A stretch of DNA of 64,000 nucleotides from IMG/VR virus record IMGVR_UViG_3300026549_000045, positions 71,135 through 135,134 of that record; one strand, given 5' to 3'. Source of the DNA: a virus (lineage: Duplodnaviria; Caudoviricetes). Made by a program: the position numbers and the translations under genes. Below the pieces are notes generated by a model. That model saw only the letters and a list, made by a program, of their open reading frames with translations. It was not told the DNA's origin and did no database searches. Each line of letters begins with the position of its first letter. Position 1 is the first letter of the stretch. Positions 20,065 to 53,466 of the stretch are shown here, piece by piece.

Positions 20065-20703
20065 ATGACAAAAGACGAGCTTTTATTGAAGTTGGTTGCC
20101 ACCGAGTCATTGGAGGCCGCCATCAATGACATCATCGCGTATGTCAAGCAGAACCGTACAGCCATCGACGCTAACATCAGTACCGTCAACGGCAAAGTAA
20201 CAACTCTTATCGGCAGCGATACTGCAAAGAGCGTCCGCACCATCGCTAACGAGGAACTGGCTGCACAGCTGATTCCTGCTAATGCCAAGGAGGCCCTCGA
20301 CACCTTGCAGGAGATTGCTGCATGGATCCAGAGCCACCCAGACGATGCCTCTGCCATGAACACGGCCATCACCAACCTGCAGAACCTCATTGGTACTCTC
20401 CCACAGGACACTGAGGAGACCACCGTCGTGGCTTGGGTAACAGCAGAACTGGCCGCCCTCGCTAATCAGATCAGTGGCAAGAACGTCTCTGCATCTGGTG
20501 AGACCGGCAACGATGCCCTCGTAACGGCTTCTGCCTCTAACAATGCCGTTACCGTTGGTTCTACCACAAAGCTGCAGAACGCCGTGGCTGCTGCTGAGTC
20601 GGCTGTTCAGCCAGAAGATCTCGGTCTGCTGACCGTATCAGAGGCACAGGCTCTCGTAGCCGCTGCCATCGCTGATTCTTCCAGCTCGAACTCCAGCAAC
20701 TAA
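20065..20703 (+). CDS. Putative fibre or whisker protein with Ser-rich C-terminal tag
   Basis: ALDTLQEIAAWI motif common in phage fibres, coiled coil, ends ADSSSSNSSN. Confidence 0.6.
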   Translation: MTKDELLLKLVATESLEAAINDIIAYVKQNRTAIDANISTVNGKVTTLIGSDTAKSVRTIANEELAAQLIPANAKEALDTLQEIAAWIQSHPDDASAMNTAITNLQNLIGTLPQDTEETTVVAWVTAELAALANQISGKNVSASGETGNDALVTASASNNAVTVGSTTKLQNAVAAAESAVQPEDLGLLTVSEAQALVAAAIADSSSSNSSN

Positions 20704-27115: not shown

Positions 27116-27697
27116 TTAGTTGCTCGAATCAGATTCAACATCCTCGGCAATCTCACCGTAGTACTTCACAACGTCGTACACCTGGAAGTTGCAGACGAAG
27201 TTGAAGGTTGTACCGTGCTCGTCGTTGCGGTTCTTACCGCTGTCGTTGGTACGGCTGAACACCACGTCGCCAGTAGGATTGCCGACGACCTTCCACTCCT
27301 TCAGTGAAGTGCCGTTCACCTTCTTGGTCTTGCCAGTGGGGAAGAACACCATGTAGCCACCGCCCATGTTGGAGAGACGGCGACCGAGAACAGCCATATC
27401 GTCCTCGTTCTTGTCAACGAGACCTGTACCGGTAACGGTGTTGGCACCGCCCTCGCCGTTGTCCTCGCTGCTGACCTGACCAGACTGGTTCTTAAAGGCA
27501 ATCTTGAAACCCTTCAGGGTAGAGCCTGAACCACCCTTGGGAGTGATGTTGTACTGGTTCTTCTCATCGTTGATCTCGATGTTGCCCTCGATGTGGTCGC
27601 TGTCAATAGGAACGACCATGCAGTAGTTACTGGTACCGCCCGGATTCTCCGAGCAGTCGTTCGTCTGCTTAACGTGCTTTAAATTGCAAAGTCCCAT
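27116..27697 (-). CDS. Probable major tail tube protein
   Basis: 193 aa, strongly biased codons like the capsid gene, directly downstream of it; C..NPGG N-terminus and WKVVGNP; ends ESDSSN. Confidence 0.6.
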   Translation of the reverse strand: MGLCNLKHVKQTNDCSENPGGTSNYCMVVPIDSDHIEGNIEINDEKNQYNITPKGGSGSTLKGFKIAFKNQSGQVSSEDNGEGGANTVTGTGLVDKNEDDMAVLGRRLSNMGGGYMVFFPTGKTKKVNGTSLKEWKVVGNPTGDVVFSRTNDSGKNRNDEHGTTFNFVCNFQVYDVVKYYGEIAEDVESDSSN

Positions 27698-27817: not shown

Positions 27818-29098
27818 TTAGATGCTGCTGTCAGAGTCACCACCGCCCTCTTCCTCGAACATAGCTACGAGGGTCACAACACCACCAGGGAAGGTGTAGT
27901 TGTAGGGGTTGGCAGTAGCGTTGTCGCTCCAGCCCTTGAACTTGTAGCCATCCTTCGGCGTAGCGGCAACAGTGATGATGTTGCCCTCAGCATAGAGGTC
28001 CTTCTCACCAGAGGTGATCTCGGCAGTACCCTCTTTCTCGTCGCTGGTGGCAACGGTGAAGATATCGGCAATGTAGTCGCCAGCGGGTACGTTGTTCGGG
28101 GTGTTCTCCTCGTCGTTGGTAGCGAATACCTTCGGGGAGTAGTCGCGGATACGAGAAGCCTGAGCGGTCTGCACCTGATAGTCGAACAGGTTGTGGTCGT
28201 CAGAGTTGCGCTCAACAGTGATGTTGGCCTGGCTCTCAGGACGCACGTCGCAGATGTACTCCAGTGTTCCGGGCAGACAGAAGATGAGTTTGTCGCCCTT
28301 ACCCATAGAGGTGTGGGTGGTCAGCTTCAGGTTCTTCATCTGACTGAACTTCCAGCCATCCTCCAGAACGGTGACAGCCAGCTGCGGGTGCATCAGCATG
28401 TAACCCTCGACAATCTTGTCAGCGAGGTCAGAGCTGACGTAAGCCAGCAACTCCTCGGCACCGCGAAGGTCGTCGTTCAGTGAGTTGTAAGCGGCCTTGA
28501 ACCACTTGTAGGCAGCCAGAGAGTCGCTGGGAGCAGCGCCGGTCTTAATCAGGTTGCCGATAGCCTCGCTGATAATACCCTTGGTGATACCCTGTGCGAT
28601 CTTGGTGAAGATACCGTCGTACAGAGAGAGACCCAACTTCACCTGGTTCTCCGTGGTCTCGGGCAGGTTGGCGTTAGCCTCGTTGCCGAAGAAGAAGTTG
28701 GCGCGGACGTCCTGAGCGTGGCGATTGGCGATCTTCTCCAGCAGGAACTGCGTCTTCTCTGCGTTGTTGGTACCGTCGGGGTTCACGTGGAAGGGTTCCT
28801 TCTCACGATACTTCTGGACGTTGTCCTGGGGGTGAGTAACTGCGAGAATCACCTTTGCAGGGTTCTCGACAAACATACCGAGCTGTACCTTCTTGACGGC
28901 ACCCTGCTTATACTGACGTGCAAGCAGACCCTTGTCATTGAAGAGGAACAGCTTGTCGATGTTCTCGACGTCGGTCGTGACAGTGATCTGGAGGTCATCC
29001 AGCATCTTGTCATTCAACATGGAAGCGCGAGCTACCAGGTCGACATGCAGCTGTTCGGTAACAGTCTGCACTTGTGAGACATTGATTGCGTAAGCCAT
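27818..29098 (-). CDS. Major capsid protein with C-terminal Ig-like (divergent InlB B-repeat type) domain
   Basis: Follows the protease/scaffold gene, has its own promoter and strong codon bias; SLYDGIFTKI; C-terminal ITVAATPKDGYKFKGWSD...TLVAMF then GGGDSDSSI. Confidence 0.75.
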   Translation of the reverse strand: MAYAINVSQVQTVTEQLHVDLVARASMLNDKMLDDLQITVTTDVENIDKLFLFNDKGLLARQYKQGAVKKVQLGMFVENPAKVILAVTHPQDNVQKYREKEPFHVNPDGTNNAEKTQFLLEKIANRHAQDVRANFFFGNEANANLPETTENQVKLGLSLYDGIFTKIAQGITKGIISEAIGNLIKTGAAPSDSLAAYKWFKAAYNSLNDDLRGAEELLAYVSSDLADKIVEGYMLMHPQLAVTVLEDGWKFSQMKNLKLTTHTSMGKGDKLIFCLPGTLEYICDVRPESQANITVERNSDDHNLFDYQVQTAQASRIRDYSPKVFATNDEENTPNNVPAGDYIADIFTVATSDEKEGTAEITSGEKDLYAEGNIITVAATPKDGYKFKGWSDNATANPYNYTFPGGVVTLVAMFEEEGGGDSDSSI

Positions 29099-29155: not shown

Positions 29156-29191
29156 CAAATTTACTATGTAGAGAACTACAAGTCAAGGGCA
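29156..29191 (-). promoter_or_regulatory. Phage-specific promoter copy for the capsid gene (TGCCCTTGAC-N18-TAAATTTG)
   Basis: GTCAAGGGCA at 29182-29191. Confidence 0.8.
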
Positions 29192-31162: not shown

Positions 31163-31198
31163 GCAATTTACTATGTATCGCCGTGATTGTCAAGGGCA
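31163..31198 (-). promoter_or_regulatory. Phage-specific promoter copy (TGCCCTTGAC-N18-TAAATTGC)
   Basis: GTCAAGGGCA at 31189-31198. Confidence 0.8.
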
Positions 31199-32435: not shown

Positions 32436-32471
32436 GCAATATCGTGATTTCTAAAGAAAAAGTCAAGGGCA
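32436..32471 (-). promoter_or_regulatory. Phage-specific promoter copy (TGCCCTTGAC-N18-GATATTGC)
   Basis: GTCAAGGGCA at 32462-32471, overlapping the stop of the upstream gene. Confidence 0.8.
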
Positions 32472-33329
32472 TTTTAAATACATCTTCCCATCCCCATAGC
32501 AGAACACAGGTTTTCCGCTAAGTTCGCAGATCCTCGCCGCCTGCTCGCGGTCGCTCTCGACAAACAGGGTCGCCCAGTCTGACTTCTTATACTGATGCGC
32601 CTTATATCTGCCCGGGTACGACATGGCATTGCGCTCTTCACGACTATCAGCCTGAAACATAATCAGGTCGTTATATTGTATGCCGTGTCTTTTCAGCCAT
32701 CGCTCGGTGATATCCCGGTACTTCTCCAGCCTGTAGGTTACGATGGCCCCAATCGGTGTGGTTGGCACCACCATCGGCACGGCATGTTCAAGGTAGTACT
32801 CGTAGGCTTTGGTGTCACGCTCCGACGGCGGGTCTTGGCACAGCACGCCGTCAATGTCCCACATCATGGCCTGTGTCTTATGCGCATGATGGTGCATGAT
32901 GTTCCACTCATAGAGATACCACCGCTCGCCTGGCACGTAGATATCCTCCAGCCAGATGTTCACCAGTGCCTTGGCATCTCTGCCACGGGCAAAGACACAG
33001 CCGAACAGAATGTCATACGGCCCTGTCATCGTAACCAGCATCTTGCGCGCCCTGACAATGGCAGCACCAGTGTTGACGGTATCGTCTATCACCAGTACTT
33101 TCCCCGGCCTTCCCCTGCCAAGCAACGTCTGTCTGTCACCGCACGACATGATGTTGCCGTCAAGGAAATCATCCAACGAGGCACATCGCCTGCCCAGCAA
33201 CTCGGCCACCATCAGTGCGGCTATCATGCCAGAGCGCGGTATGCCGACAATAATGTCTACATCCTGCGGTATCTTCCATAGATTCCTGCGGATAGCGTCC
33301 GACAGGTCTTGATAACTCTTGTATATCAT
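32463..33329 (-). CDS. Phosphoribosyltransferase + HAD phosphatase fusion
   Basis: IVGIPRSG and VLVIDDTVNTG (PRPP-binding loop); WDIDGVLC (HAD motif I), IVTYR, FVESD; likely start ATG 33329. Confidence 0.8.
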   Translation of the reverse strand: MIYKSYQDLSDAIRRNLWKIPQDVDIIVGIPRSGMIAALMVAELLGRRCASLDDFLDGNIMSCGDRQTLLGRGRPGKVLVIDDTVNTGAAIVRARKMLVTMTGPYDILFGCVFARGRDAKALVNIWLEDIYVPGERWYLYEWNIMHHHAHKTQAMMWDIDGVLCQDPPSERDTKAYEYYLEHAVPMVVPTTPIGAIVTYRLEKYRDITERWLKRHGIQYNDLIMFQADSREERNAMSYPGRYKAHQYKKSDWATLFVESDREQAARICELSGKPVFCYGDGKMYLKCP

Positions 33330-33358
33330 AGCTTGAACCTGAAACCTGAATCTTGAAA

Positions 33359-34858
33359 CTATGCCCACAGGGCTTTATGCTCCTCCAGCCACTCTTTCGG
33401 GTCCTTCCCTTTCCAACTGCCATGACCGAAATGCAGGGCATAAGGGTCTATGCTCAACTCGCGGCGCGGCAGACCGTGGCGTCTCACATCCTCCAAGAAC
33501 CAGCAGCCCGTGTCATACGCCTTGTCGGGGGACTTATAGGTCAGTGCCCACATCTTCGGAAAATTGAAGTAACTCACACCCTCCTCCTTCATCATCGGCA
33601 CGTTGACAAAGCAAAGGAACGGCAGCACCCTCTCAACAGTAATCCTGAAAGCCGACATGTGGGGCTTCACCTGTCCAACGAACGCCTGCGTCTTATCCCA
33701 GAAGCTGCTGATGTCCTGCTTGATGAGCACATCAGAATCCATCAGGATAAACGGGTTGCGACGCTTGTTCACAAGCCACTGCACCGTCCAGCAGTGCTTG
33801 GCCGACGCCCATCCGTTGCCAACGTCCACCTTGTCAGGGAACTCCTTCAGCCATTCGTCGAAGTTGATGATCTGTCCCTTGGTATTGTCGATAACCTCCA
33901 CACCTTCCATCGGCACAAACGGTCGCTTGTCGCTGTTGTCGAACACGATGATGCCAACACCAGGCGTATGCTTCTGCAGCGAACGGATGCAGCAGCGCGT
34001 CATCTCAGGTGTATTGTAATGCACGATGCACACCGTGATACGCAGTTCCTTGTTGCGCTCGAAGGCTTCCATGTAAGCCTGCTTCTCAGGCGTTGCCTCG
34101 TTATACTTAAAGAATCGTCCCTTGTACTTCTTTCGGAAAGCATCCATGTCAGGCTTGTTGCCAGTACCCTTCGTCCACTTGTTCATCATCCACTCCTCAA
34201 TGGTTTTCGTGGCATAGTGGTGCAGAGTGGCCACGTTGAAGTCGTATGGCTGGAATGGCGATGCCTCGCAAGGCTGCCACGTGGCTGTATAGCAGCAGCG
34301 CGCCGTATCGGGAATATGCGGATTGCGCCCGAAGGAAATCTCACCAAGTCCACCCCTCACGATGCTCTTGATGTGGTTGTTGTTGGGGAAGTCATACTGC
34401 ACTGCCTTGTCCAGCGGCAACGGCTCCGTGAAGCGCTCCTTCACGCCACGTCCGTCATCATACACCAGTCCGCAGTCGCCATAGCATTTCCAGTTCACCA
34501 GCACCGTATCAGCATCAGTGCCTGTGTAGAAAGCCAGCCACTGCTTCACCGTCATCACGCTGTTCACCGTCAGAAACTCGTCGAAGTCAAAGAACGCTAT
34601 CCAGTCGTACTGACCGCCATACTGGCGATACATTTCGTTATATGCCGTAACCTGCACGCCCTGCCTGTTTCTGTAGTCATGGATGCTGACCTTATGCTCG
34701 GCAATTCTGTCTCCGAGAACATCCTCGAAGTATTCCTCCCCATCGTGATTGTTGTCACAGATGTAGATGTGGTCAAACCCCAGCTCAAGGTAATGTTCAA
34801 CCCATTCTCGGGCATATCTGTTCTCGCGCCGCCCGATGGCTACCAATGCTGTCTTCAT
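33359..34858 (-). CDS. Two-domain GT-A glycosyltransferase (GT2-like)
   Basis: N domain EWVEHYLELGFDHIYICDNN...WIAFFDFDEF; C domain VCIVHYNTPE...IIVFDNSD...ILMDSDV. Confidence 0.85.
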   Translation of the reverse strand: MKTALVAIGRRENRYAREWVEHYLELGFDHIYICDNNHDGEEYFEDVLGDRIAEHKVSIHDYRNRQGVQVTAYNEMYRQYGGQYDWIAFFDFDEFLTVNSVMTVKQWLAFYTGTDADTVLVNWKCYGDCGLVYDDGRGVKERFTEPLPLDKAVQYDFPNNNHIKSIVRGGLGEISFGRNPHIPDTARCCYTATWQPCEASPFQPYDFNVATLHHYATKTIEEWMMNKWTKGTGNKPDMDAFRKKYKGRFFKYNEATPEKQAYMEAFERNKELRITVCIVHYNTPEMTRCCIRSLQKHTPGVGIIVFDNSDKRPFVPMEGVEVIDNTKGQIINFDEWLKEFPDKVDVGNGWASAKHCWTVQWLVNKRRNPFILMDSDVLIKQDISSFWDKTQAFVGQVKPHMSAFRITVERVLPFLCFVNVPMMKEEGVSYFNFPKMWALTYKSPDKAYDTGCWFLEDVRRHGLPRRELSIDPYALHFGHGSWKGKDPKEWLEEHKALWA

Positions 34859-34862
34859 GTCG

Positions 34863-35828
34863 TTATTCCGTTATTTGTCCTGTATGCTGCTGAGTCACAG
34901 CAGCTCCCTCCAGCTTTCTCTCAATCTCCCTGTGAACCATCTCCGCCCTTACCTTCCAGTCGAAGATCTTCTCGTTGTCATTCAGGCAGACCATTCCCGC
35001 CTGCGGGTCACGGATAATCTCTGCCAGCCGCTGTGTCGGCGTTTCATGGTCGGTATAGTGCCTTGGTGGACGGTGCTCTACATACAATCCCTCAAAGTGC
35101 TGATATAGCATGTAGATATAGTGATTGTAACTTCGGTCGTTACGCTTCAGCGGCGACAGGTAATAGGTTATCTCGTCGCCATGTCTGCGCCATACCTCTT
35201 CACAGCTGCTCTTCCTGATGGCAGCAAAGATATGCCCTGTGTCGGGCCACTTCGCTGTATAGTGCTTGCCGTAGCGCCCCGCTATCATGTTCAGCTGATA
35301 CATGCACTTCCTCTGGAAGATATTCGGATTCGGTGGATACACTCGCTCCGTTATCTTCTGGCACGGCAAGAGTGTGCCGTCCGGTTCTGTCTGACGGAAG
35401 AAGTCCTCCGGCTGCAGCGGACTCAGCGGAAACATATCGTCATTGCCGTAGATAAAGTATTCCGACAGCTCTGGTATCTTATGCAGGAACATCTCAATGC
35501 ATGGACTCGCGAAGCACGGCAGCATGTTTGCCGGCATGAACTCCCGATGAAACACAGTCCTCACCTCCGGCTGCATAGTGCCTTGCTGTTCTGCCGCAAG
35601 GTTCTTCATCCACTCCTGCACCTGGCTTTCATGTGCCAGCAGGATATAGATGCGTCTGAGCCACGGCATAAACTTTATGCAGCACCTCACCAGCAGTTCC
35701 TCAGTACCCCACGAACGGAAACGCTCGCTCTTTGTCGCATCCCCTATATGGAAGCGTTGGTATTCCCGCCGCCACTCAGGGTCTGCGGGAAATACCATCG
35801 GTATTACTAAGTCAATATCTCTCTCCAT
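34863..35828 (-). CDS. Stealth family sugar-1-phosphate transferase
   Basis: CR1 IDLVIPMVFPADPEW; CR2 FMPWLRRIYI...IEMFLHKIPELSEYFIYGNDDMF; CR4 CLND. Confidence 0.88.
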   Translation of the reverse strand: MERDIDLVIPMVFPADPEWRREYQRFHIGDATKSERFRSWGTEELLVRCCIKFMPWLRRIYILLAHESQVQEWMKNLAAEQQGTMQPEVRTVFHREFMPANMLPCFASPCIEMFLHKIPELSEYFIYGNDDMFPLSPLQPEDFFRQTEPDGTLLPCQKITERVYPPNPNIFQRKCMYQLNMIAGRYGKHYTAKWPDTGHIFAAIRKSSCEEVWRRHGDEITYYLSPLKRNDRSYNHYIYMLYQHFEGLYVEHRPPRHYTDHETPTQRLAEIIRDPQAGMVCLNDNEKIFDWKVRAEMVHREIERKLEGAAVTQQHTGQITE

Positions 35829-52773: not shown

Positions 52774-53466
52774 CTAAATTCTTGAATACTCCTTCTTCGC
52801 ATCAAAGCTCGGACAGCTTTTGATCCACTCCTGCGGCTCGACAATGCCATTGTGGTTCTTGTCTGGCGAAAAGTCGCGGTGGCCACTGATCTTTGCTTTG
52901 GGGTATAGCTTACGCAACTCCACCAGCAACGAGAGCAAAGACGCCTTCTGGGCCTCCGTTCGCGTGTCCTTTGCCTTCAGCTTGTTATATGGCACGCCTG
53001 GCTTATTCTCCAGACCGCCCACGTATGATATGCCGATGCTGTGTGCGTTATAGCCGCTGACGTGCGCACCGATAAGGTCAACGTCACGTCCGTTCCATTT
53101 CTCGCCATTCAGTCCTATCACATAGTGGTAGCCGATGTCGCTCCAGCCGTTCTTCTTGTGTTCGGCACGAATCTGGTCAACAGTCATTGCCTGTCCCTCC
53201 CTTGATGCCGTACAATGGATGACGATATCCGTTATCACCCTGCGTGACTTCTTCAGGTTGAAAGCCTGTTTGACTACCGCAGGCAGCAGTTTTGCCAAAG
53301 TGGCCGGACCCGCTATGCCGTCTGGCGTCAGGTTATGTTCACGCTGCCATGTCATCAGCGCCTCACGGGTGAGCGGGCCAAACTGCCCGTCTTGCACCAG
53401 GTGCAGCGCACCCTGTATCTGTTTCACTACAGGGCCGCTGCTTCCAAGTTTATAAAGTGTAGCCAT
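52774..53466 (-). CDS. Endolysin: PG-binding domain + T7-type N-acetylmuramoyl-L-alanine amidase
   Basis: LTPDGIAGPATL; IVIHCTA, IGYHYVI, GAHVSGYN, GHRDFS and KSCPSF motifs. Confidence 0.92.
   Translation of the reverse strand: MATLYKLGSSGPVVKQIQGALHLVQDGQFGPLTREALMTWQREHNLTPDGIAGPATLAKLLPAVVKQAFNLKKSRRVITDIVIHCTASREGQAMTVDQIRAEHKKNGWSDIGYHYVIGLNGEKWNGRDVDLIGAHVSGYNAHSIGISYVGGLENKPGVPYNKLKAKDTRTEAQKASLLSLLVELRKLYPKAKISGHRDFSPDKNHNGIVEPQEWIKSCPSFDAKKEYSRI

Follow-up and report, generated by a model that had tools for sequence, protein, structure and literature searches.

A candidate cytoplasmic virion-glycosylation cassette in the structural gene block of a rumen phage

Three adjoining genes in the structural gene block of a rumen phage quite probably form, judging from sequence comparison, a cytoplasmic virion-glycosylation cassette, the products of which would decorate serine-rich tags during assembly. 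They encode a Stealth enzyme, a double glycosyltransferase (GT), and a predicted phosphoribosyltransferase (PRT) fused to a HAD phosphatase. These enzymes co-occur with Ser-rich capsid and tail-tube tags across phage families and therefore most likely sugar-coat the virion. The window, a stretch of 64,000 nucleotides, belongs to a phage genome of 135 kb from rumen, the host of which is probably a Prevotella-type bacterium. A Bacteroidetes host had been predicted, and this gained support as a lead, in that all nine relatives from genome collections fell into rumen MAGs of Prevotella or Bacteroidales.

Results

The original prediction placed three sugar-enzyme genes behind the tape measure protein (TMP) gene, and we found them there, tightly coupled on the minus strand (Table 1). 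The first 17 nt of Stealth, which starts at an ATG, overlap the end of the TMP ORF, and a gap of 4 nt separates Stealth from the double GT gene. With its GTG start, the PRT-HAD gene overlaps the double GT gene by 10 nt; homologues favor an ATG at 33329, which leaves a 29-nt gap and probably gives a product of 288 aa. No promoter-like or terminator-like site was found between the TMP and cassette genes on their own strand, and the promoter-like site at the PRT-HAD stop codon delimits the TMP-cassette unit at its end; comparable sites occur at 31193, before the protease gene, and at 29186, before the capsid gene. We propose that the cassette would be co-transcribed with the TMP gene. A conserved TMP C-terminus followed directly by Stealth was also present in relatives G001, L132, and L135 to L137. 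The three proteins had been predicted to lack transmembrane helices, and this was borne out: no membrane helix was detected in windows of 19 residues, the Kyte-Doolittle maxima being 1.2 to 1.7, with the highest value in the PRT core. The window thus has soluble phage-encoded GTs located within its structural gene block.

Table 1. Coordinates of cassette genes, tagged proteins, and neighboring features in the window
Feature	Length	Position	Strand	Remarks
Tape measure protein gene	3798 aa	35812-47208	minus	phrog_28, 1e-26 over residues 1718-3060; phrog_167, 2.8e-17
Stealth gene	321 aa	34863-35828	minus	
Double glycosyltransferase gene	499 aa	33359-34858	minus	
PRT-HAD gene	301 aa from GTG	32463-33368	minus	
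Promoter-like site TTGACT-17-GATATT		32438-32466	minus	starts exactly at PRT-HAD stop codon; heads next gene
Prohead protease-scaffold fusion	641 aa	29209-31134	minus	phrog_53 head maturation protease, 2.4e-18; SppA-type domain and coiled-coil C-terminus
Probable major capsid protein	426 aa	27818-29098	minus	directly after protease-scaffold gene; Flg_new_2; tag EEEGGGDSDSSI at 27821-27856, tail ends DSDSSI
Tail-tube-fold protein	193 aa	27116-27697	minus	tag ESDSSN at 27119-27136
Late protein	187 aa	54652-55215	minus	ends EEEDSDSSN (third tag copy)
Tagged protein	212 aa	20065-20703	plus	ends SSSSNSSN, tag at 20677-20700

All five predicted catalytic domains gained support at the HMM or fold level, the PRT match being a weak one below the Pfam cut-off. 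By its sequence, the 321-aa protein is a Stealth-family hexose-1-phosphate transferase, predicted to be soluble. It matched Stealth_CR2 (PF11380) at 88.1 bits (E 5.3e-25; Pfam cut-off 39.4), its residues 4 to 285 aligned with Mycobacterium tuberculosis CpsY (8j2n) at E 1.3e-15, and GNPTAB (7s6n) was matched at E 1e-11. CR1 to CR4 were all present in order in the CpsY alignment (IDxV, NDDMF, H..RKS, and CLND), and their signature residues were invariant across ten phage Stealths.

The 499-aa protein consists of a GT92-like GT-A domain (residues 1 to 254) and a GT8-like GT-A domain (residues 267 to 499), and its AlphaFold (AF2) model had a pLDDT of 93.2. The N-domain matched PF13704 (Glyco_tranf_2_4; 55.1 bits, cut-off 27.5) and PF01697 (GT92; 30.7 bits, cut-off 23) and was close in structure to GalS1 (Z 17.6, rmsd 3.2 Å, 199 residues aligned); it also resembled the peptide glycosyltransferases ThuS and SunS (Z 12.8 to 14.6). 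For the C-domain there was no sequence match in Pfam, NCBIfam, or PDB, and no Pfam model fell on it among the best 120 of 812 homologues. Its fold resembled those of UGGT (Z 13.2), glycogenin and GlyE (Z 13.0 each), and LgtC (Z 12.9), and its DxD (D374/D376) was invariant in 50 homologues. The model points to a GT8-like retaining GT-A fold, GT8 in likeness of function and not filed in a described GT family. The best Foldseek matches of the whole model were dual GT-A enzymes (E 1e-9 to 2e-6). The dual GT-A polymerases, namely Pasteurella multocida heparosan synthase 2 (8viw), the Escherichia coli K4 chondroitin polymerase (2z86), and LARGE1 (7ui6), likewise have two GT-A domains per chain; identity to them was 9 to 11%, and the domains are placed differently (rmsd 16 to 23 Å over both domains). 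Polymerase activity of the double GT is a possibility.

The third product is predicted to be a type I PRT with a fused HAD phosphatase. Its PRT domain scored 20.6 bits against PF00156 (cut-off 26.3), matched the purine PRT structure 4trb at E 2.5e-5, and contains the canonical PRPP motif VLVIDDTVNTG. The HAD domain matched phrog_415 (4.7e-10) and Pnkp1 (4xrp, 0.003) and has the DxDG motif; DIDG, T198, K243, and E258-S259 were invariant among homologues. Homologues numbered more than 1165, with a length of about 285 aa, and a Stealth or GT gene was adjacent to PRT-HAD in seven distinct phage settings (the window, L018, L037, L130, L132, L221, and one NCBI contig).

Four proteins in the window end in Ser-rich tags (Table 1). 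We regard the 426-aa protein as the probable major capsid protein on the basis of its position and a language-model atlas lead to Phi29_MCP plus Flg_new_2 (0.89); its C-terminal Ig-like Flg_new_2 domain was matched at 2e-11. For the 193-aa protein, nearly all of the best 50 VIA-align rows were tail-tube, Hcp, or related tube-fold proteins (Z 5 to 7.3, residues 20 to 182), confirming a tail-tube fold at the level of the AF2 model (pLDDT 76.6), in which residues 189 to 193 are disordered. The 187-aa late protein, called a tail terminator in the original prediction, has homologues in Stealth-free genomes, and these are without Ser tails. A homologue of the 212-aa protein, 49% identical, lies two genes away from a Stealth fusion in L044. 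The end DSS[NI] occurs on three non-homologous proteins of the window; the number expected in the genome is 0.003. The tails, which are disordered, keep a constant composition while differing extremely in both length and sequence, and that of the probable capsid protein varies with the presence of the cassette among relatives.

Comparison of related phages for co-occurrence of Stealth and Ser tags was positive in two unrelated families, supporting the predicted role in virion glycosylation. In both, Ser-rich C-terminal tags on capsid or tail-tube proteins were found only where Stealth sits in the structural module. In the window's own family, a Ser-rich tail was present on the probable capsid protein in every evaluable cassette-bearing genome (the window group, L005, L006/L130, L132, L127, L128, L131, and L004), and on the tail-tube protein too in most; all four evaluable genomes lacking the cassette also lacked tags (the complete genomes G004 and G005, plus L133 and L134). 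In L133 and L134 the next structural gene comes immediately after the TMP gene, and Stealth is absent from the whole MAG. Stealth-free relatives have another peptide module in place of the capsid tail. The independent contrasts in this family, two to three in number, agreed without exception. The second family is an unrelated siphovirus family with a capsid protein matching phrog_29. Tags occurred in 0/34 of its Stealth-free rows versus 16/25 of its Stealth-bearing rows, the remaining nine having Stealth without tags, and among five independent pairs differing in tags Stealth was concordant in four to five and opposite in none. Sign tests within single families were not significant (p 0.125 and 0.5); the two families pooled gave six to eight phylogenetically independent contrasts that were concordant and none that were discordant (p about 0.01 to 0.03).

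In a wider scan, 43 of 973 ORFs at Stealth loci were tagged, most of the tagged ones being the size of a capsid or tube protein, versus 4 of 497 at Stealth-free loci, none of them capsid or tube; no tagged ORF lay within 7 kb of the more distant jumbo-phage homologues of Stealth. Tags are associated with Stealth in three or more unrelated capsid families, where gains and losses have been repeated; every tagged phage has Stealth, and no other component is shared by all of them. In the complete genome G001, the families searched include no GT-like gene except Stealth, and Ser-rich tails are nevertheless present; L058/L059 are also tagged with Stealth alone. The GT8-like domain is present in most tagged lineages and also in four untagged ones (L072, L082, L084, and L108). 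Five Stealth-bearing lineages of the second family have no capsid or tube tags (L026, L028, L084, L096, and L108), indicating that tags are not the sole possible Stealth target; together with L082, which has the double GT gene and neither Stealth nor tags, they indicate that the enzymes have, or had, another acceptor. The cassette genes were always inside structural modules beside capsid, tube, or TMP genes, and not near lysogeny or early genes.

Discussion

We infer the acceptor, donors, step order, timing, and benefit of the cassette, among them late expression, direct priming of serine by Stealth, the sequence of extension steps, and a ribofuranose cap, and propose the following pathway. 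The targets would be disordered, acidic tags, rich in Ser, at the C-termini of the probable capsid and tail-tube proteins and of two or more other late proteins. Stealth would move hexose(-NAc)-1-phosphate from a UDP-sugar to tag serines, or to the first sugar on them, giving a phosphodiester-linked sugar; the inverting GT92-like and retaining GT8-like domains would then lengthen the chain, perhaps by acting in alternation; and the PRT domain would add ribofuranose-5-phosphate from PRPP, the 5-phosphate being removed by the fused HAD phosphatase. A charged glycan coat that shields or masks the particle in the rumen is a plausible benefit. We hold more tentatively a specific version in which Stealth puts sugar-1-phosphate on the tag serines themselves, the double GT and PRT-HAD build a phosphodiester-anchored ribofuranose glycan, and the GT8-like domain represents a new dedicated GT family. 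Such a glycan, teichoic-acid-like or repeating, might decorate capsids and tails in many phages of rumen Bacteroidota, and phosphoglycosylation by Stealth would then be the first of protein serine known outside eukaryotes.

The same tags could be modified in another order, which we think somewhat unlikely: the GT8-like or GT92/DUF4422 domain primes the serines, and Stealth adds sugar-1-phosphate to the glycan. Protein-directed GT-A enzymes prime serines, whereas GNPTAB and capsule polymerases act on sugar hydroxyls; the meningococcal capsule polymerases are Stealth hexose-1-phosphate transferases, and we know of no characterized Stealth enzyme that transfers to serine rather than to a sugar hydroxyl. 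Priming by a GT also agrees with the resemblance of the C-domain (Z about 13) to the self-glucosylating glycogenin, the glycoprotein glucosyltransferase UGGT, and GlyE of the serine-rich-repeat adhesin pathway, with that of the N-domain to ThuS and SunS, and with the prevalence of the GT8-like domain in tagged lineages. It is opposed by the untagged phages that have this domain and by the tagged phages with Stealth alone, which would have to depend on a host transferase for the first sugar; in contrast, G001, with tags kept and only Stealth, fits direct transfer of sugar-1-phosphate to serine.

Explanations in which the tags are not glycosylated fared worse. Bacterial Stealth, GT8, GT92, and PRT-HAD enzymes build polysaccharide, and this, along with the five untagged Stealth-bearing lineages, would suit a cassette that alters a glycan of the host envelope (capsule, LPS, or teichoic-like polymer), for example in superinfection block or release, with the tags unrelated. 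We judge this improbable: tags never occurred without Stealth in evaluable genomes of the two families, the genes keep to structural modules, the three proteins have no membrane segment, and no lipid-carrier transferase, flippase, or exporter was present in the cassette and the scanned adjoining genes. It is highly improbable that the acidic Ser tags serve as assembly, phosphorylation, or proteolytic maturation signals and accompany Stealth through shared descent only; each family alone does have too few independent contrasts for significance, but the association recurs, with gain and loss, in unrelated capsid families, the tails vary greatly while their composition stays constant, and a different peptide module takes their place on the capsid of Stealth-free relatives. 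Phage GT-A enzymes can glycosylate hydroxymethylated bases (bioRxiv 10.1101/2023.12.21.572611), which would favor hypermodification of phage DNA with coincidental tags; this has hardly any probability, as it leaves the tag correlation unexplained, the cassette belongs to the late structural operon and is well away from replication genes, and a thymidylate-synthase-like hydroxymethylase was absent from six genomes of the window's family in a search to which control genomes responded.

Returning to glycosylation of the virion tags, the original prediction regarded Stealth and PRT-HAD chemistry on virions as undescribed, and our literature search likewise found no description of it for phages. 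The phage Stealth resembles CpsY and human and Drosophila GNPTAB (7s6n and 7dxi) in the full-length alignment to the CpsY catalytic domain and in the CR1 to CR4 residues, and differs from them in being compact (about 300 aa), phage-encoded, and inside virion modules; its acceptor would be a protein tag or tag glycan, whereas those of the known enzymes are capsule or N-glycan mannose.

In Haemophilus influenzae Bcs3 and also in E. coli K18, the PRT-like CriT and the HAD phosphatase CrpP together install ribofuranose from PRPP (PMC10299916). As with CriT/CrpP, the putative pair in the window lies inside a glycan-building gene set, and presumably the same logic applies, with Ribf-5-P transferred and the 5-phosphate then removed (PMC10299916). 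The domain order is reversed, the PRT being N-terminal in the window protein, and the latter has the classical vicinal DD in its PRPP motif, whereas CriT splits the residues (D680/E818) between two loops (PMC10299916). Unlike the CriT/CrpP system, the window protein has no helical-bundle or SH3b module; sequence similarity of its PRT domain to CriT was not detectable, and no Bcs3 chain was among the PDB sequence matches of PRT-HAD up to E 5.

In the cytoplasmic O-glycosylation of bacterial adhesins with serine-rich or Ser-Asp repeats (GlyE 5gvw of the PsrP pathway; SdgA/SdgB, PMC3794999), soluble GTs act on long Ser-rich or SD-type tracts before assembly or export. The GT8-like domain resembles GlyE, and the tags of the window are SD-like (DSDSS), as in Ser-Asp-repeat adhesins. 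Those systems prime with GT-B enzymes (GtfA/B, Sdg) and act on bacterial surface adhesins, whereas the cassette has no GT-B enzyme, has Stealth as its constant component, and is predicted to act on virion proteins.

A close parallel in gene placement and predicted target is the O-glycosylation of mycobacteriophages Che8, Corndog, and Myrna (Freeman et al. 2023, Cell Host Microbe 31:1216, via PMC12619734 and PMC13313380); soluble phage GTs are encoded in or beside the structural genes, as here, and glycans lie at the C-termini of capsid and tube proteins, the same ends that carry Ser-rich tags in the window. The host phylum differs, Actinobacteria there versus, as a lead, rumen Bacteroidota here, and so does the enzyme set, which here comprises a Stealth sugar-1-phosphate transferase, the GT92/GT8 double GT, and PRT-HAD. 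To our knowledge, neither a phosphodiester-linked sugar nor ribofuranose has been reported for mycobacteriophage virion glycans. Among the relatives of the window, tags and enzymes are gained and lost together, the Ser extensions being on the probable capsid protein, identified by position, and on the tail-tube protein. Most likely, then, the cassette is a variant, with chemistry not described for phages, of the mycobacteriophage type of virion glycosylation.

Organization of the cassette

The window covers the final 64 kb of its IMG/VR source record, which has 135,134 bp and was rated complete by CheckV. Three minus-strand genes lie immediately 3' of the tape measure protein (TMP) ORF: the ATG of gene 1 (Stealth) is 17 nt within the 3' end of that ORF, 4 nt separate the gene 1 stop from the start of gene 2 (double GT), and gene 3 (PRT-HAD) overlaps gene 2 by 10 nt if the GTG start at 33368 is used. 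Because more than 1165 gene 3 homologues of about 285 aa start at the internal MIYKSY, the ATG at 33329 is probably the true start and the listed GTG wrong. We found no promoter- or terminator-like sites between the three genes on their own strand; a promoter-like site, TTGACT-17-GATATT, begins exactly at the PRT-HAD stop codon, which falls in its first hexamer. A blastn search with the cassette as query found no match among 50,697 phage records.

The tape measure protein has 3798 residues in the window, which would imply a very long tail, 2983 in the complete relative genome G001 and more than 2200 in others. Its TMP-family matches are confined to residues 1591-3060, with flanks of 1590 and 740 residues that have no assigned domain, and a Pfam scan of the ORF gave no match. 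The endolysin gene lies within the late minus-strand block, upstream of the gene called portal in the original prediction.

Locations of the cassette and associated features, in window coordinates unless a relative locus (L) is named
Feature	Location	Strand	Matches or remarks
Gene 1, Stealth, 321 aa	34863-35828	-	
Gene 2, double GT, 499 aa	33359-34858	-	
GT8-like C-domain of double GT	33362-34063	-	at least 812 homologues (P0004-P0123 among them)
Gene 3, PRT-HAD, 301 aa	32463-33368	-	
Tape measure protein gene, 3798 aa	35812-47208	-	phrog_28 1e-26, phrog_167 2.8e-17
Recurrent promoter-like element TTGAC(T/A)-17-(G/T)A(T/A)ATT	32438-32466, 31165-31193, 29158-29186	-	precedes three consecutive late genes
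Endolysin, Amidase_2 + PG_binding_1	52774-53466	-	phrog_822 4.8e-52
Capsid genes with ~50-aa alternative extension	L008:10001-11452, L009:10001-11440, L133:10001-11430		
Double-GT gene (GT92 + GT8-like) at second site	L072:24-1517, L082:131-1510, L084:23-1219		also in L088, L108
~180-aa protein at chaperone position	L023:12250-12798		

Predicted enzymes

In gene 1, Stealth_CR2 scored 88 bits against a cut-off of 39, residues 4-285 aligned with the catalytic domain of M. tuberculosis CpsY (8j2n, E 1.3e-15) and also with GlcNAc-1-phosphotransferase, and the CR1-CR4 signature residues were invariant across ten diverse phage Stealths. Gene 1 is predicted to encode a full Stealth enzyme.

Pfam recognised a GT2_4/GT92 domain in the N-terminal half of gene 2; the C-terminal half gave no match in Pfam, NCBIfam or the PDB sequences, nor did PDB searches with the double GT as a single sequence or with a profile of the GT8-like domain. 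The AlphaFold model of gene 2 (pLDDT 93.2, 50 homologues used) had as its best whole-chain matches heparosan synthase 2, K4 chondroitin polymerase, ColGalT1 and LARGE1 (E 1e-9 to 2e-6), all of them bifunctional double GT-A enzymes. For residues 1-254 the structural matches included GalS1 of GT92 (Z 17.6) and two peptide glycosyltransferases, ThuS and SunS; for residues 267-499 they included glycogenin, UGGT, LgtC and GlyE, all GT8/GT24 enzymes, at Z of about 13. On the model, the C-terminal domain may work like a GT8, yet we do not file it as a GT8 member. Among its homologues it combines modularly with Stealth, GT92, DUF4422 and DUF616, and none of the best 120 of at least 812 carried a Pfam model there; the domain seems to form a family not yet described.

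Gene 3 is predicted to join a type I phosphoribosyltransferase (PRT) domain, with the motif VLVIDDTVNTG and a match to the purine PRT 4trb (2.5e-5; below the Pfam cut-off), to a HAD phosphatase domain with a DIDG motif (phrog_415, 4.7e-10; Pnkp1, 0.003). No membrane-like segment was found in any of the three cassette proteins. The original prediction had started from three coupled sugar-enzyme genes behind the tape measure gene, without transmembrane helices, and this observation was confirmed by the coordinates, overlaps, domains and lack of a membrane segment. It had also read five enzyme domains, and from the HMM, PDB and fold matches for Stealth, GT92-like, GT8-like, PRT and HAD we therefore take all five predicted domains to be real, the PRT domain being the weakest.

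Serine-rich protein tails in the window

Genes downstream of the cassette encode a prohead protease-scaffold fusion (phrog_53, 2.4e-18), then a 426-aa protein whose C-terminal domain is of the Ig-like Flg_new_2 type, and then a 193-aa protein. Serine-rich ends are DSDSSI on the 426-aa and ESDSSN on the 193-aa protein, DSDSSN on a late protein of 187 aa and SSSSNSSN on a protein of 212 aa; the terminus DSS[NI] was seen three times, against 0.003 times expected in the proteome of the window phage. The 193-aa protein was modelled at pLDDT 76.6 with its tail disordered. Nearly all of its 50 best VIA-align matches were tail-tube, Hcp or related tube-fold proteins (Z 5-7.3, residues 20-182), and Foldseek alone gave weak tube matches (best E 0.009); the modelled protein has the tail-tube/Hcp fold. 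Gene position and a language-model lead to Phi29_MCP make the 426-aa protein the probable capsid protein. When seven of its homologues were scanned against Pfam with E allowed up to 10, the matches were to Ig-like Flg_new_2/Flg_new only and to no capsid family, and PDB sequence searches with profiles of the capsid protein and both tube families gave no match.

Co-occurrence of Stealth and serine tags

Capsid relatives of the window's own phage family (family 1) were taken from viral contigs and genome collections, and the cassette was sought across their whole records. Throughout this section the counts omit loci L007/L012, L010, L126 and L103/L105/L107, which are fragments or incomplete MAGs and could not be scored for Stealth. 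In the cassette-bearing genomes listed here the capsid tail was Ser-rich, and in most the tube tail was too, while the enzymes varied: Stealth, double GT and PRT-HAD in the window group; Stealth fused to the double GT, without PRT-HAD, in L005; Stealth, PRT-HAD and a GT8-like gene in L006/L130 (as a single gene) and L132; TMP-Stealth-GT8-like blocks on other contigs of the same MAGs for L127, L128 and L131; and nothing but Stealth, whose start once more overlaps the end of the TMP gene by 17 nt, in L004/G001. The complete genomes G004 and G005, together with L133 and L134, had neither cassette nor Ser tails; in the latter two the TMP gene is followed directly by the next structural gene, and Stealth is absent from the whole MAG. 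The capsid tree of family 1 provided 2-3 independent contrasts, all concordant.

Three of these cassette-free genomes have, in place of the capsid tail, another peptide module some 50 aa long (...GDVYSLTEDT..GKTYY.K.). This extension is common to phages of two separate capsid-tree clades, and the capsid C-terminus thus resembles a site at which decorations can be exchanged. All nine relatives from genome collections belong to rumen MAGs binned as Prevotella, Prevotellaceae, Bacteroidaceae or Bacteroidales, a lead to the rumen Prevotella/Bacteroidales group as host.

Stealth homologues were found in many other rumen viral contigs. Family 2 is a canonical siphovirus family, with a capsid matching phrog_29 and the large terminase upstream; profile comparison of its capsid family with that of the window detected no homology (probability 0.6%). 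Its Stealth gene is flanked by the tube gene on one side and the chaperone/TMP genes on the other, and in many cases it forms a fusion with DUF4422 and the GT8-like domain. From this family 80 capsid relatives were retrieved and scored for Stealth and tags: tags were present in 16 rows with Stealth and absent in 9, whereas all 34 rows without Stealth lacked them. Among 7 independent Stealth-differing pairs on the capsid tree, tags were concordant in 4, opposite in 0 and did not differ in 3; among 5 tag-differing pairs, Stealth was concordant in 4-5 and opposite in 0. Contrasts within a single family were not significant; pooled, 6-8 were concordant and 0 discordant (p roughly 0.01-0.03). The pairing occurred again in a third family (L032, L036-L038, L040) and in further loci (L221). 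In a wider scan, with a tag defined as at least 4 serines among the last eight residues of an ORF, 75 Stealth loci had 43 tagged ORFs out of 973, mostly capsid- or tube-sized; Stealth-free loci had 4 out of 497, and no capsid or tube ORF was among these four. The co-occurrence of cassette and Ser tags that the original prediction looked for among relatives was thus found in families 1 and 2, and its virion-glycosylation reading is supported as far as sequence comparison reaches, in that tags co-vary with Stealth.

The Ser-Gly-Ser tail of a ~180-aa protein 3' of Stealth in family 2 was rejected as a tag. This protein and its homologues end in ...GSGS, NGS or SVSGS with or without Stealth, and the tail is therefore cassette-independent.

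In some family 2 phages a double-GT gene is found at a second location, past the terminase/portal genes and about 10 kb upstream of capsid; these phages may have or lack Stealth and have no capsid or tube Ser tags.

Distant Stealth homologues (27-33% identity) occur on 130-350 kb contigs of jumbo and other phages, and no Ser-tagged ORF was found within 7 kb of them (L178, L182, L184, L188-L213). Either the tags of these phages lie elsewhere in the genome or Stealth has another role there.

Interpretation and alternatives

Across the scored loci tagged phages have Stealth, but the reverse does not hold: five family 2 lineages have Stealth alone and lack tags. This asymmetry fits an origin of tags as substrates once the enzyme is present, and it means that in some phages the enzymes have another acceptor. 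Descent alone could in principle have carried tags and Stealth together, but the association recurs across unrelated capsid families, which contradicts that explanation. Remodelling of a host glycan by the cassette has little support: besides the lack of membrane segments, lipid-carrier, flippase and exporter genes are absent from the cassette and the scanned neighbours, and the tags would be left unexplained. Glycosylation of phage DNA, as a hypermodification, would leave them equally unexplained and is unlikely, as six family 1 genomes had no thymidylate-synthase-like hydroxymethylase in searches whose controls were positive.

Stealth is the sole component common to all tagged phages. A search of the complete genome G001 for GT2, GT2_4, GT4, GT8-like and double-GT genes found none; its Ser-rich tails are kept nonetheless, and loci L058/L059 resemble it in pairing tags with Stealth alone. 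The tags in these Stealth-only phages favour a reaction in which Stealth would pass sugar-1-phosphate directly to serine. Against this, all Stealth acceptors characterised to our knowledge are sugars, and it is possible that the host does the priming in these phages instead. Protein phosphoglycosylation by the cassette, with Stealth as the candidate enzyme, is unproven but testable. If virion glycosylation of this kind is real, it gives a new picture of these phages' surfaces, with bearing on stability, aggregation, adsorption, immune and mucus interactions and the interpretation of cryo-EM maps; a simple sequence signature would predict glycosylated virions in metagenomes; and compact soluble enzymes with short peptide tags would be available for direct trial in E. 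coli as a protein phosphoglycosylation system.

Comparison with known systems

In seven phage contexts the PRT-HAD gene has Stealth or GT genes as neighbours. It repeats the logic of CriT/CrpP, by which ribofuranose is installed from PRPP (PMC10299916), and by analogy it may work in the same way; its domain order, however, is the opposite of that in CriT/CrpP, its DD motif is of the classical vicinal type and homology was not detected, and we therefore do not file it as a member of that system.

Our literature search turned up no publication that describes Stealth, phosphoglycosylation or PRT-HAD chemistry for phage particles. Virion glycosylation is known from experiment for a few mycobacteriophages only. 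There the C-terminal ends of capsid and tail-tube proteins carry the glycans (Freeman et al. 2023, as cited in PMC12619734 and PMC13313380). The comparisons made here support the cassette as a putative new variant of virion glycosylation, and suggest that the mycobacteriophage strategy of a tag plus a soluble transferase is widespread in gut and rumen phages. Like the mycobacteriophages, these phages have disordered C-terminal Ser tags on capsid and tube and soluble transferases of their own; in contrast to them, the chemistry would be charged, resting on sugar-1-phosphate and possibly ribofuranose.
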